DNA of 64,000 nucleotides from contig NC_092344.1 of NCBI RefSeq assembly GCF_963676685.1, positions 10,478,001-10,542,000 on the forward strand, in the 5' to 3' direction. The notes below the pieces were generated by a model, which saw nothing but the letters and a program-made list of their open reading frames with translations, was not told the origin of the DNA and did not search any database. This DNA comes from Mytilus edulis (Eukaryota). The first letter of the stretch is position 1; the number at the start of each line of letters is the position of its first letter. Of this stretch, positions 46,601 to 52,600 are shown one piece after another. Both the position numbers and the translations under genes were made by a program.

Positions 46601-49600
46601 AAGTAACTTCCTTAAAAATTATAGTATTATCAAAATGACTTTTTGTTTTTTTAATTCTGTATTTTAAAGTTTGTTTATTCAATAAAACTCATCAATAGCT
46701 GGAATTGTTGTCATACATTGCTAACTCATTGACGACTCCCAGTGTTCATATTAACCACAATAAACCCCAAAACATAAAGCAATTATGATCCATATAGTCA
46801 TTCTGAATATTACTCCTTTTGACAAGCACTATCTTCTCTACATTTTTAAACAGATTTAAATGTACAAAGAATAATGGCTAATACTGACTTTGTTTGATCC
46901 AATGGATTCAAAAGGACCTTCCACTTGTGCAATATAATCATTCATTTCTGCAGTAACTACAACTGTTAAGATGACCAATGCTTTTTTTTTCTTCTATATA
47001 ATTGTTAAAAGGTTTAGATAAGAATTCAGCAATATTATTTTAAACCAATTTTAACATACAATTATTAAACCTTATGCCATCTTACCTTGTAGGAATAGTA
47101 TCTTTGAATATATCTAACATAATCACACAGGTTTTATGCCATACATCTGGGGAGAACTTGGTTCCATTAGAAATAACTAGATTTTCTAAACAATTAATTC
47201 CAGATCTAGCTAATTGTTCATTATCTTGTTTGACACACCAGTGTAACTGGTTATAGAGTTCATCAAGTAACACGGTGTGTAGCACACTATAATATTGAGT
47301 GAATACATCCACAATGGCATATAGAGCATGGTTACAGGTGGTCGTCATCCATTCCGCTTTCTGAAAAACGTAAAAATAACAGAAAATGTACTTTTTATTT
47401 GAAATCTTACTTTCATTTTACATTTATTCCTGTAACTGTGTCTACACCTACTTGTGTTACTTCAATAAAAATATTACTGTTCATTACTCATAAATTAATA
47501 TAACACTAAATTACAAATTGTACTCTATGTACAGGATCACTAAGTCACTAAGTCATTCAGGTTTCCTATAAAAGTATTACCAGGCTTAAGAAAAACATCA
47601 GGTTATTTCTTTAATTTTTTTTTATATCTGACAAAACTAGTAAAATCTTCTAAAAAGATTTCACAAATAAACAGTATTTTTTTTGTTTATCTCAAAACAA
47701 CTGAAATAGTGGCAATTTACTTCAATAAAATCATTTTTTTTTTTACAAATATGCCATCTAAATTCAATGATAGAATTTGTTAACTTAAAAAAAATTAATT
47801 GCTTCTTGAAATTAGGTGCATGACCATAGCTTTATGATATCAAACAAGTGAAGGTAACAGCTTGATACCAAGCATATAATATTATGCCAGCCTGTAGAAA
47901 ATGTGTTATCATTGAACATTTACATGAAATTCCATGAATTATAATGAATCCACAGTTATCCAACTCGAGACAACCTTGGTCTGAGGAATTCTTATCTAAA
48001 TCCCAATTCTCTTAAGATTTTCTGTCTAACATTTTTTACTGGTGTATAATATTTCCATATATAATTCTGAATATATCAATTACCACTTATGTCAATATTA
48101 TATATAGAGAATATGATAAGGAATACTGGTTCATCGATAATCAATCAAGATTCTATATTTGGTTAACAAAACTTCTACTGAGACACATTACTCTTTTTCA
48201 ATTCCATTATTAAAAGTATTCAAATCACACCATATTCTGACAATTATCTTTATTTAGCAAGCTATCTAGATTATATTTATATCATAAGCATGCAACTGCT
48301 AAACTGCAATACACTATTTTTAACATGCTCTCATATTAGTTCATATTTACACTTTAAAGTAGCTTTAACAAAGCATAATGTTTCCACACTTAAGCATATA
48401 ATAAAGTTTCCCTAGCGCAAGTGTATATTTGAAGAAGGAAAGGATTATATATATGTATACTGTATAGTTTGTAGTTCTTACAAATCTTTTGTGAGCCACA
48501 GTACACTGAAATACCACGAAAGTTATATTTTAGTCTACAAGCTTGGAACAATGTAAGGACTGGTCCATATAACCCTACATGGCATTCACTTAAAGGTAAC
48601 CTTATGTAGCATACATGAATAACTGCTTAATGTTTAACTATTTAAGAGTGAAAATTCATGCTAAATAAAACAAAAAAGCATGTGTTGTCATGCTAAGCAT
48701 ACCCCACTTGTAATGAAAGTATTGGTAAACAGGAAATAGGTGTTTGACAGATCAGATTCATCACTGCCAAGCTGCTCACAAGGTATGAAGTTATTCTTAT
48801 GAAAAATTTCTGAGAAAAGTTTGAAAAGTATAACTTGACGAAATGAAGGATATTGTGATTGCAACATAGCCCCCCTTTTTAGACAAATTGCTTCTTTCAC
48901 TAAGATCCATATTTTTTCTAACGACACAATTTTAGGATTTAAAAAAAAAAATCTTTAAACTAAAACATTGAAACACATATCATCATAACAAATATTACTA
49001 TGAATGACTGCATTTCAACTGCATGTTCAATGTATTATAAGGTCAAGGTCTCATTACAAGAAATGCTCAAACAACAAAACATGCAGATGTTGCATAACAC
49101 AAAGAAGCATGTAAAAATTAGTTTAATTGTCCATTAGTACATGAAAAACCCTGAGAGAAAAAAACAAATTACATAAAAACCATTCCCATGACAACTACTT
49201 AAATTACCTCAACTTCCTGGTGATTTAACAAAATACCAATATAAAAATATTACGGGAATGTACCAAAATGTAAAGAGTGAGTAGTGGAATTCTGTTTAGT
49301 AATTACATTCCGTTTCTACAGGCAACCATTTCTAGTGAATACATTTATTAACTCACCCAAAACAAAGGCTACATTTTAATTGCAAAAATGAACCAAAATA
49401 TACTATATTTCAATGTTACATCACACAGTCATGCCTCAGCAGCTCATAATTGAAGTAATTCTAATTCTCATCGGATAACTAATTATTTGTATTTCACATT
49501 GTGTTCAACAATTTGAAAACTGTAATTTATTCCTTTTATCCTTAAATATATACAACCACCAATAATTGTCAATATTTATAAAATTGAATTTCTAACGTCT

Positions 49601-52600
49601 TTGAAAAGAGCATACATTTTCAAAATAACAGCTTCTCTTCATTCTTTTGAATAATTAAGTTGCATGTTTTATTATCAATGCATATTCTTTTCTCTTCTTT
49701 AAATTGAGCTACTGAAGTGACACAATTAAAACAGTGTTTACTACATAAGAAAATAACATCTAAAGTACCAATATGAGTATAAGTTATATACTATATAATT
49801 AAAAGAATATGAAAGGAAAAATAGTAATTAAAAGCAAAATAGAAATGAAATAAAATAAAATGGCTACAATAATCAGATTTTTCTGAATGGAACATCAAAG
49901 AAAATCTAGCAACTGTATCACTGTGTCCTGATTAACATGTTCCTGACATCAATTTTCAACAATGACAAAAGTTATATATAAAATAAATGAAATAGGCCTT
50001 TTGATTTTACACATTTAAAGTATTCAAGTCATATATTTTGTCCAGTTTGCTAGATTTTCTGTGTAAAATTTGTCATGCCATCAATGCCTATTAGTATAAT
50101 TGGGTAAGTATCATATTTGAATAAACTGTATACTAACTGTTATTTAATTTCATCATACAGGTTACAAAATTATGCAAATATAAATTGGGAATATGTCAAA
50201 AGTGGATATTCTCATTTATGAAAACTTTAACAAAGTAGGAAATTTGTCGAACTACCACAAAGTTGACTTAAGGTAACACGATACCGAATGATGTTACGAC
50301 ACGAGTTATCGTTCCTGACGTTATTGAATAACACTCACACATACAAGCCACTGCAGCAGAGTCTAGAGTCTGCAATCACAAAGTGATTAAGTAAAAACAA
50401 TCCTCTTTGTTTGGTAATTATGTGACATTTTGAACGGTAAATTTCCCTAGATGCAGAGTGCCGAGAGTTTTGATGCAATACGTAACGGTTATTTGACATA
50501 GATTGTTTTATCGTTCTCCGGCAATTCTTCTACTCATTGTTAATCTTTAAAAAGTATTGCTTTACTTTTTAAATATTCTGTTTCTTTGATATTTAAGCAT
50601 CTGCACGATTTATCTATATATGTTCTTTTGCATAACAGACTGAGTTTTATCACTTTATTTTATTCTTGGTTTATTTTCAACTGATTCAGTATTATCATTT
50701 ACTTTAAAGTGACATTCAACTGATTCAATCACTCTTATTAATATGTGACATTTAAATCATTCGATCACTCTGATGTCTTGATCAATATGTAAATATTATT
50801 ATTGTATAAAATTGTTTAATACATGCAAAATCTTCGATAATTTTACTCATATAAAGAATGCATATATGATCTCATGATTTATTTTGAAAACAATTTTTCA
50901 CAAACGACAAAATGTTGAACTTTGTGAAATTTTGCATACAGTCTGCAAGGTTTGTCCGACTTGCTGAGAAAACAAGTCACACATTTACACGACGCAGAGT
51001 CCACTATACCAATGTATTTACCAAGTCAAGAAATATGACGGCTGTTTATCCTTCTTTTGATATTTTTGAGCTTATTATTTCGTCATTTGATAAGGGACTT
51101 CTTCGTTTTGAAGTTTTCTTAGAGTTTTGTTATTTTATTTTTTAGAATGTGTTCAGGATAATTTTTTCCCTCATAATTTTCACAAATAACAGAATGTTTA
51201 ACCTTTTTTGACTGGTGCATCAAATGTGTCTTTTATAAACAACTATTTTCAAAATTGTATTATATCGTCCCGAAAATACATGAACTATATGCCACTGAAC
51301 GTTAAACAACCATCAAACCGAGCAATTAAAAAACTGAATCAAATTTCTGAAGTACTCTTTTTCTGCATGCTGCGATGATACCACCATATTTTTGAAGTGC
51401 TCTATTTCTGGATTCAGCGATGATACCACCATTGTCTAATACGATGGAGTTAAAAATCAGTACTTCGGATGAATCTCACGTGAAATTTTTCATGTAATTT
51501 TCACGTAAACTTTACAAAAATCTGAAGGTATTTTTTATGATTTTAATTAAATTTTAGAATAAAGACATTATTTGAATAATTTTATTTTAAAAAAAAATAC
51601 GTGAATTTAACGTGTACAAAATTACTTGATTTATGCATGAACTATTATCATATATAATATTCACGTGGAACCAACCAGTTTAAGCAAGTTTCAAGTATAT
51701 GCTCGTTTGATGTGAAAATGAGACGAGATTAATGTTAATTCATGTGAATGAAATTCCATGTGCAGGACGAAATAAAATTATATCTGTAGAATCTTATATT
51801 GCAATACTCGGAAATTTACGACAGGGGTTATAAAAAAATGAAATATACTCATTCAGATACTGACACATATTTTGTTTATCATTTCTCTGAGAAAGGATAA
51901 CGTTATATTCTGTATACTATAACGTCACACGTTTTTAGTCAAATTCTAGGCCTATTGATCAACTTTGAAGCCATTTATCTTAAAAACAAGGATGGTGACA
52001 TATGAGTTTCTATACGTTTATGGATTCAGTATGCAATCCTGGATTTTATGTTAGTTTTTTGTTTTTCTCCGTATATAAGTAAATAGCCATCCACTGGAAA
52101 ATCTTAAAAGGTAAGCCGAAAAAAAGGCATTTTCCCTATATACCTAAGTAAATTGTCGCCAAAATTGACGTTTTCCTATGAAAATTACAAAGAAAACAAA
52201 AATGGTGACCCCCATTTTTTATTACATATTCCGATGTAACTCGATTCAAAGAACACGTATGCCAAAAAGTTTGGAAATCGGGAGATATGCCATTCGGTAT
52301 CGTGTTACCTTAAGGAGGCTCGAGGGTATAAAAATTTCAGAAAAAAATTAAACATTTGTTTTTCATTACAAATTTATTTATTACCTTTTGTAGTTGTTAT
52401 TTTATCATATGATACAAAAATCATTCAAAACAATCAATTCGTGTTGGCCCAAGATGACTTTTAAAATGTATACATCATTCAAAAAGTTCCAAATTATCTC
52501 CCTTTGGTGGGAAAATGCCATTTTTTGGCTTTAAAATTGAAATATCTTTTTTAACTCATCGGTGACCTATATTTTTTAATATAATTTCCATATAAGCTGT

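Follow-up and report, generated by a model that had tools for sequence, protein, structure and literature searches.

Short alternative inserts at a recurrent splice junction of a mussel BIG1-like Arf-GEF gene

Results

The BIG1/ARFGEF locus and its junction intron

We analyzed a stretch of 64,000 nucleotides (nt) of the Mytilus edulis genome (contig NC_092344.1, positions 10,478,001 to 10,542,000; hereafter the window), whose minus strand carries the mussel BIG1/ARFGEF gene. The gene encodes an Arf guanine nucleotide exchange factor (GEF) of the BIG/Sec7 family, a Golgi trafficking switch. At one of its exon-exon junctions, two short in-frame modules, VGVTT and CTVAHKRF, are spliced in alone, together, or not at all, and other invertebrates carry different short inserts at the same place. 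An annotated M. edulis BIG1-like protein of 1822 residues (P0002) maps letter for letter onto 40 exons in the window and the next 18 kb, and a second protein (P0134) also maps letter for letter at the locus. P0002 shows the Pfam order DCB, HUS, Sec7, HDS, BIG2_C of the large Arf-GEFs (ARFGEF1/2, Sec71), and its best PDB match is Sec7 (8ucq).

The junction lies directly after E1415 of P0002, between a glutamate and a lysine (hereafter the E/K junction), and corresponds to a 5.9-kb phase-0 intron between 53281 and 47360. The upstream exon ends in a proximal donor AG/gttggt of 6.3 bits (the slash marking the exon-intron boundary), and the downstream exon matches the genome only once, in the window. 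A phase-0 intron stands at the same position in annelid-, insect- and other animal-like metagenome loci (80 of 108 matches taken in); this intron is ancient. The features discussed below are collected in Table 1.

Table 1. Exons, modules and candidate exons at and around the E/K junction, with the genomic match for a putative splicing regulator. Bits, summed acceptor and donor score.
Feature	Position	Strand	Bits	Basis
Second alternative cassette exon, 51 nt (17 residues)	55318-55368	-	14.6	Same gene, about 140 residues upstream
Constitutive upstream exon, ending PEQQNE	53281..53410	-		Mapping of P0002 and P0134; joint 47360-53281 in 4/4 contig sets
VGVTT, 15-nt exon extension by alternative donor (VGVTT/gtaagt)	53266..53280	-		Proteins and contig joints
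MLFSYV, probable chance pair	49742..49759	-	6.4	Donor 1.9 bits; in no protein or listed joint
PLFW, candidate 12-nt microexon	49357..49368	-	4.7	Acceptor -1.9 bits; UGC at -16; AG-free zone 34 nt; donor GG/gtgagt 6.6 bits
KRN, weak candidate 9-nt microexon	49307..49315	-	5.3	UGC at -9; AG-free zone only 16 nt
EVE, candidate 9-nt microexon	49208..49216	-	15.4	AG-free zone 75 nt (top 4%)
69-nt segment (LGSD...ITSG), probable chance pair	48703..48771	-	6.3	Acceptor 1.4 bits; no transcript match
CTVAHKRF, 24-nt cassette microexon	48482..48505	-	10.1	Proteins and contig joint
Constitutive downstream exon	47086..47360	-		Mapping of P0002 and P0134; match to Sec7 8ucq residues 1447-1531
Two exons for an eMIC-type C-terminus	G000:C6:38277666-38282507 (L090, L091)			PF15230 matches

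Two modules are spliced in all combinations

VGVTT arises from a second donor at 53265, 15 nt downstream of the proximal one, which the initial annotation of this DNA had overlooked. In a Mytilus protein cluster of 34 members, 15 are listed and 13 of those cover the junction: six carry VGVTT only, three CTVAHKRF or CTVAHRRF only, three both and one neither, which gives VGVTT in 9/13 and the second module in 6/13. A mytilid-like set from ENA, 89% identical, has the same four states with VGVCT and FPISFKRY (7/7 read), so both modules predate the split from that lineage.

Joints in assembled contigs agree with the proteins. We used four runs (X1-X4, of 24 listed) with unlabelled tissues, recorded only as guessed RNA, and took them as spliced RNA because of their long GT..AG joints. 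Among the 15 of 18 joints listed, 47360-53281 occurs in all four runs, 47360-53266, which adds VGVTT, in X1 and X4, and 48505-53281, from the upstream exon to the CTVAHKRF acceptor, in X4 alone (depth 7.8). The VGVTT joint reaches a depth of 37 versus 28.7 for the skip form in X1 and 14.5 versus 16.9 in X4, although contigs lose rare forms and their depth says little about level. These 15 do not include the joint that connects CTVAHKRF to the downstream exon, but database proteins do carry that connection. CTVAHKRF is thus a 24-nt, AG/GT-bounded exon for which both inclusion and skipping are seen in transcripts, and its splicing is practically certain. We are just as confident that VGVTT is spliced. 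Altogether, this supports the combinatorial, frame-preserving cassette that had been proposed for this junction, where other bivalves have two to three modules.

Among the raw reads, run X24 reaches only 1-2x exon depth with no splice joint listed, and X21-X23 are small-RNA libraries; about 24 read letters in the CTVAHKRF bin and about 21 in bin 49056-49289 were not assignable and were not used. A metagenome scan gave no close match to the mussel exon (best 84%), only partial, clam-like introns (e.g., L031, L032), and no mussel junction fragment came up among shorter proteins. Long V...Q "inserts" in these appear to be introns read through in gene calls on genomic DNA, and we left them out of the exon count.

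A subset of the candidate microexons stands out from the intron background

The initial annotation had proposed six AG/GT-bounded exons in this intron, CTVAHKRF among them. Their ends, lengths, translations and the intron phase are all as proposed, and so are the UGC motifs upstream of PLFW and KRN and the gap of 41 nt between these two, from which mutual exclusion had been argued; the shortest of the gene's 39 mapped introns, at 160 nt, is longer than this gap. CTVAHKRF alone of the six is seen in transcripts. The other five, including MLFSYV and the 69-nt segment, occur in none of 610 proteins (590 of which cover the junction) and in no joint listed for the four contig sets. This is weak evidence of absence because contigs drop rare forms and the tissues are unlabelled; it is also established that exons of 9-12 nt are readily missed by aligners and contig builders, as in the paper describing TopHat (PMC2672628).

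The mere presence of such segments means little, since the intron holds 150 in-frame, stop-free AG..GT pairs of at most 75 nt. We therefore scored them with matrices from 37 other introns of the same gene, a small set, with thresholds chosen after the candidates were known. As a set, the six are not clearly above chance (at 6 bits or more, the 1.4-kb cluster holds 6 pairs versus 3.1 expected from 26 kb of the gene's other introns). A rule demanding a YAG acceptor, a frame-preserving length, at most 27 nt and a donor of at least 5.4 bits, a post hoc threshold, selects exactly PLFW, KRN, EVE and CTVAHKRF across the whole intron, with a background of 0.37-0.44 per kb and four reached in 1% of 300 shuffles. 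The PLFW-KRN-EVE triplet spans 161 nt and is one of 1-3 such triplets in 288 kb (144 kb on two strands) at donor cut-offs of 4.5-5.4 bits, and is gone at 6.0.

EVE is the best unproven candidate and probably a real exon. Its splice-site pair is the best of the 150 counted above and outscores each of the 848 pairs from 26 kb of other introns in this gene, the strongest of which belongs to the known 51-nt cassette exon; it is also the only pair of such strength in 144 kb on either strand. The EVE donor is the second-best of the intron. A homology of EVE to the scallop insert GTQ, also 9 nt, is suggestive only and too short to test.

PLFW is a possible exon, at somewhat less than even chances. 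Its combination of features has no counterpart in 24 kb of other introns and one in 30 kb of antisense sequence. Its likeness to a clam P...W exon (both start with CCT and end in TGG/gtRagt) was likewise set aside, being suggestive at best over so short a length.

KRN is a weak candidate, and we consider it unlikely to be spliced. An Arg-to-Trp variant at 49312 in runs X1 and X2 counts against it, whereas a variant in its donor at 49302 does not, as the site is not weakened (5.4 to 6.0 bits). KRN with its next base (49307-49315) resembles the start of the downstream exon (47350-47360) on the minus strand, at 10/11 positions with one base missing, and a similar 9-mer lies 15 nt upstream; perhaps this is a local duplication, or chance.

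Splicing of the two remaining segments is very improbable, and both are probably chance pairs. Other introns and the antisense strand have 0.3 pairs per kb at the level of MLFSYV. The 69-nt segment is too long for a microexon of at most 27 nt, against its initial description as one, and no transcript supports it either; its likeness to a 23-residue hemichordate exon does not exceed that of shuffled sequences (1721/5000) and was rejected.

Neural eMIC control of the junction is possible

The initial annotation had linked the cluster to regulation by SRRM3/4 (eMIC). The genome encodes an Srrm2/3/4 eMIC-type C-terminus, matched by PF15230 in two ordered pieces 4.7 kb apart that read ...RRRIT and SARKRPVPYYRPSP and score 25.9 and 20.8 bits, each just under the 27-bit cut-off. 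PLFW has all three marks of the eMIC layout, namely UGC near the AG, a weak acceptor and a long AG-free zone. KRN has the UGC with a short zone, and EVE a long zone without UGC. Bulk RNA contigs show the proven microexon CTVAHKRF, and no UGC occurs within 78 nt of its acceptor. The motif is neither necessary nor rare, as it is reported for only 74-79% of true eMIC targets and lies within 24 nt of 116 of 601 (19%) random intronic YAGs. Since the genome encodes the regulator domain and PLFW has the described layout, neural eMIC control of the junction is possible on sequence grounds, and PLFW and KRN may be under such control and escape notice in bulk RNA.

The inserts fall in a predicted loop of the HDS solenoid

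We modeled residues 1084-1527 of P0002 with AlphaFold (57 sequences; mean predicted local distance difference test score, pLDDT, 85). The model has a helix to 1407, a loop at 1408-1422 with pLDDT under 50 at 1411-1421, and a helix from 1423, in agreement with the proposal that the inserts enter one loop of the HDS region. The predicted loop connects two helices of the solenoid. Its top fold match is again Sec7 8ucq. We place VGVTT within the loop, and most of CTVAHKRF is predicted, with moderate confidence, to extend the next helix. The junction falls between the Pfam HDS and BIG2_C matches, in a part of the solenoid that we infer to be HDS3, and aligns to about residues 1431-1446 of T. terrestris Sec7, where the fungal loop exceeds the animal base form by 5 residues. 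The flanking E, K, E and W are invariant or nearly so in 150 distinct sequences, and the catalytic domain is more than 500 residues away. Several pteriomorph inserts are basic and aromatic (HKRF, FKRY, HFKSK). According to the Sec7 structure paper, HDS2 (L1177) serves autoinhibition, the HDS1-2 H-loop membrane binding and HDS4 dimerization (10.1101/2023.11.22.568272), so that the junction loop is none of the functional parts described there.

Different lineages carry different inserts at the same junction

In 10 of 11 bivalve sets, isoforms are not alike at the junction; the remaining set has two Sinanodonta proteins, both with GDFVTQ. Oysters carry HFKSK, AEQ or VS and scallops GTQ, GTQVM or VCAG, while Mercenaria, Mya and Dreissena have an 18-nt D[DE]YYVQ exon and a 33-nt exon of 11 residues ending in W. 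Mya adds TFMDVPFS for up to three modules, and TFMDVPFS and DDYYVQ never occur together (15 of 16 isoforms listed). The 33-nt exon is visible with its AG/GT in a host contig closest to clams (L032), the only foreign insert for which a cassette could be told from a shifted splice site. Beyond molluscs, scorpions and damselflies (odonates) share ...DRLAE; shrimps, krill, an isopod and a barnacle have 10-11 residues, two nemerteans 12-13 residues and two hemichordates a conserved 23-mer. Judged from the peptides only, several lineages have alternative inserts that are non-homologous yet share one coding position, which is the pattern of a type I convergent exon site and indicates that the junction is a recurrent insertion site in many invertebrate lineages. 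Within lineages, three oyster genera keep HFKSK, four clam genera D[DE]YYVQ, and scorpions and damselflies DRLAE, from which we infer selection on the inserts.

Two intron-free metagenome sequences have three extra, WSE-like residues at the junction (L007:4554-4580 and L008:5062-5088), and tick proteins lack its K (P0084, P0085, P0607); these are further hints at a loop of flexible length.

Discussion

We propose that the E/K junction is an alternative-splicing site using VGVTT, CTVAHKRF and likely a rarer EVE, whose inserts are predicted to make one surface loop of the HDS solenoid longer and would so tune the binding of partners or membranes; we hold this reading to be probable. Donor choice and cassette inclusion yield the four observed loop variants with 0, 5, 8 or 13 extra residues, a number that EVE, if spliced, would double. 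The inserts are predicted to lengthen this one loop, CTVAHKRF partly by extending the next helix. Because the catalytic domain is remote, the flanks are invariant and the inserts are conserved within lineages, they would reshape a surface on which partners or membranes dock instead of acting on catalysis. That the inserts help to recruit the GEF to trans-Golgi network or endosomal membranes, or to dock it there, is a more tentative, functional step of this proposal.

Several observations weigh against this proposal. EVE, PLFW and KRN are absent from the proteins and listed joints searched. The lengths of RefSeq isoforms X3, X5 and X7, as far as their numbering tells, fit a 2x2x2 set of the 17-residue cassette, VGVTT and CTVAHKRF, with no room for more. 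Contigs of run X2 over 49039-49497 differ by 4-6%, versus 1.3-1.5% in two nearby intron pieces, which argues against a conserved island there at the population level; the run X1 contig over this region differs at 2 of 202 places, both at KRN. No insert is present in 185 vertebrate proteins (the best 120 of 1686 matches of an insert-free query, plus cluster members, a sample that favors insert-free forms), nor in 15 amphioxus, 15 octopus, 12 abalone, 9 limpet, 5 apple-snail and 14 lepidopteran proteins, and 15 oligochaete-like introns lack a conserved island. Finally, the inserts share no sequence between lineages, which would also fit mere tolerance.

The alternative that survives best, although we judge it unlikely, is that only the two annotated modules are real and the other five segments, EVE included, are chance AG..GT pairs. 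The many such pairs in the intron, the lack of all five from proteins and listed joints, and the divergence in X2 speak for it. Against it stand the EVE pair, unique in the 288 kb, with a higher score than the 51-nt cassette exon of the gene and an AG-free zone of 75 nt, and the ease with which exons of 9-12 nt escape aligners and contig builders.

A second alternative, tolerated splicing noise, seems improbable to us. It holds that the loop is permissive, so that in-frame exons arising in an old intron persist without function and each lineage collects different ones. Inserts that are unrelated between lineages and absent from many would be expected, fungal Sec7 also differs in loop length, and the upstream donor, which is fairly weak, is followed by another GT after 15 nt. 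Noise does not sit well with the long conservation inside lineages (oyster HFKSK, clam D[DE]YYVQ, arthropod DRLAE, the two hemichordate 23-mers), nor with a VGVTT joint whose contig depth, poor measure as it is, resembles that of the skip joint in X1 and X4.

We give similarly little credence to the full picture of the initial annotation, in which PLFW, KRN and EVE, and perhaps further segments, make up a cluster that is specific to neurons, depends on eMIC and comes in addition to the two broad modules, PLFW and KRN excluding each other sterically. The rare triplet does lie in the one known hotspot intron, the layout of PLFW is eMIC-like in a genome that encodes eMIC, two Mya modules appear to exclude each other, and ganglia may be absent from the runs tested. 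None of the three has a transcript, however, KRN carries a missense variant in two runs, UGC is common near random YAGs and missing at EVE, and the thresholds were set post hoc on a 37-intron matrix. The widest version sees the BIG/Sec7 loop as a bilaterian splicing hotspot that bivalves, arthropods, nemerteans and hemichordates each filled with exons of their own, and the mussel cassette as two-tiered (two broad modules plus a hidden neuron-specific triplet of EVE and PLFW or KRN); as many as 24 loop variants would then decide which membranes or partners are engaged. It is equally unlikely; if true, it would reveal an unrecognized regulatory surface of Sec7/BIG.

The preferred reading, an alternative-splicing site in an HDS loop, resembles several known systems. 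As in type I convergent tissue-specific exons, described for spg/DOCK3-4 and syd/SPAG9, orthologous genes, a GEF among them, have time and again gained differing short exons in one coding region (10.64898/2026.09.05.749416). Those exons are defined by neural specificity. In the accessible text of that preprint the only mollusc is the octopus, insert-free at our junction, and the main text does not name ARFGEF/Sec71; moreover, several modules stack at one junction here, with none in the vertebrates examined. SRRM3/4 (eMIC) neural microexons, as described (10.1101/2021.02.24.432780; 10.1101/2024.09.17.613571), are likewise frame-preserving and 3-27 nt long, and here too the gene is a trafficking gene and the regulator is encoded. 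PLFW shares their weak acceptor, UGC and AG-free zone and EVE the long AG-free zone, but CTVAHKRF lacks a nearby UGC and appears in bulk RNA, and VGVTT is an alternative donor, not an exon. The diglycine/triglycine microexon of cytohesin is another tiny in-frame insert in a non-catalytic domain of an Arf-GEF; there, one glycine in the lipid pocket of the pleckstrin homology domain shifts phosphoinositide preference, while here 5-13 residues enter a solenoid loop of a large BIG-family GEF (PMC6724607). The D-loop and H-loop of Sec7/BIG are also loops of the alpha-solenoid backbone and are described as regulating autoinhibition and membrane binding (10.1101/2023.11.22.568272; PDB 8ucq); unlike them, our junction lies some 260 residues past the autoinhibitory L1177 of HDS2.

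VGVTT and CTVAHKRF are already present in automated RefSeq/GenBank models, and the general same-site pattern is known. Our literature searches returned no report of this junction, although preprint supplements could list ARFGEF/Sec71 exons, and a search on microexons in bivalves returned nothing on point. An ARF review notes how little is understood of the regulation of ARF GEF splice isoforms and of the differences between them (PMC6724607). A junction with independently kept short inserts between invariant residues marks a Sec7/BIG backbone loop without assigned function. The inserts are natural variants for existing liposome GEF and localization assays, and they provide a bivalve example of same-site recurrent exon gain.

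Other features of the gene and intron

The 51-nt cassette exon further upstream has parallels of its own, as oysters have an unrelated insert of 17-19 residues at the same place and clams one of 18 residues at another nearby junction; this part of BIG therefore has more than one recurrent site.

Two isolated splice sites lie in the junction intron. The intron's top-scoring donor, GG/gtaagt (9.3 bits), is found at 53120 on the minus strand, 160 nt beyond the upstream exon; no joint was seen, and its use would include a stop codon and give a decay-prone form. A strong orphan acceptor (10.0 bits) at 49150 on the same strand lies 58 nt downstream of the EVE donor with no good donor beyond, and frame 0 from it runs into a stop after 10 codons; this may be a poison exon, a terminal exon or a chance site.

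The intron also holds a 2-kb element at 50267-52314 with perfect 24-nt terminal inverted repeats and TTAA near each outer end, probably a non-autonomous DNA transposon. Next to it, 52310-52870 is a high-copy repeat, whose summed depth is very high both in RNA reads and in contigs.

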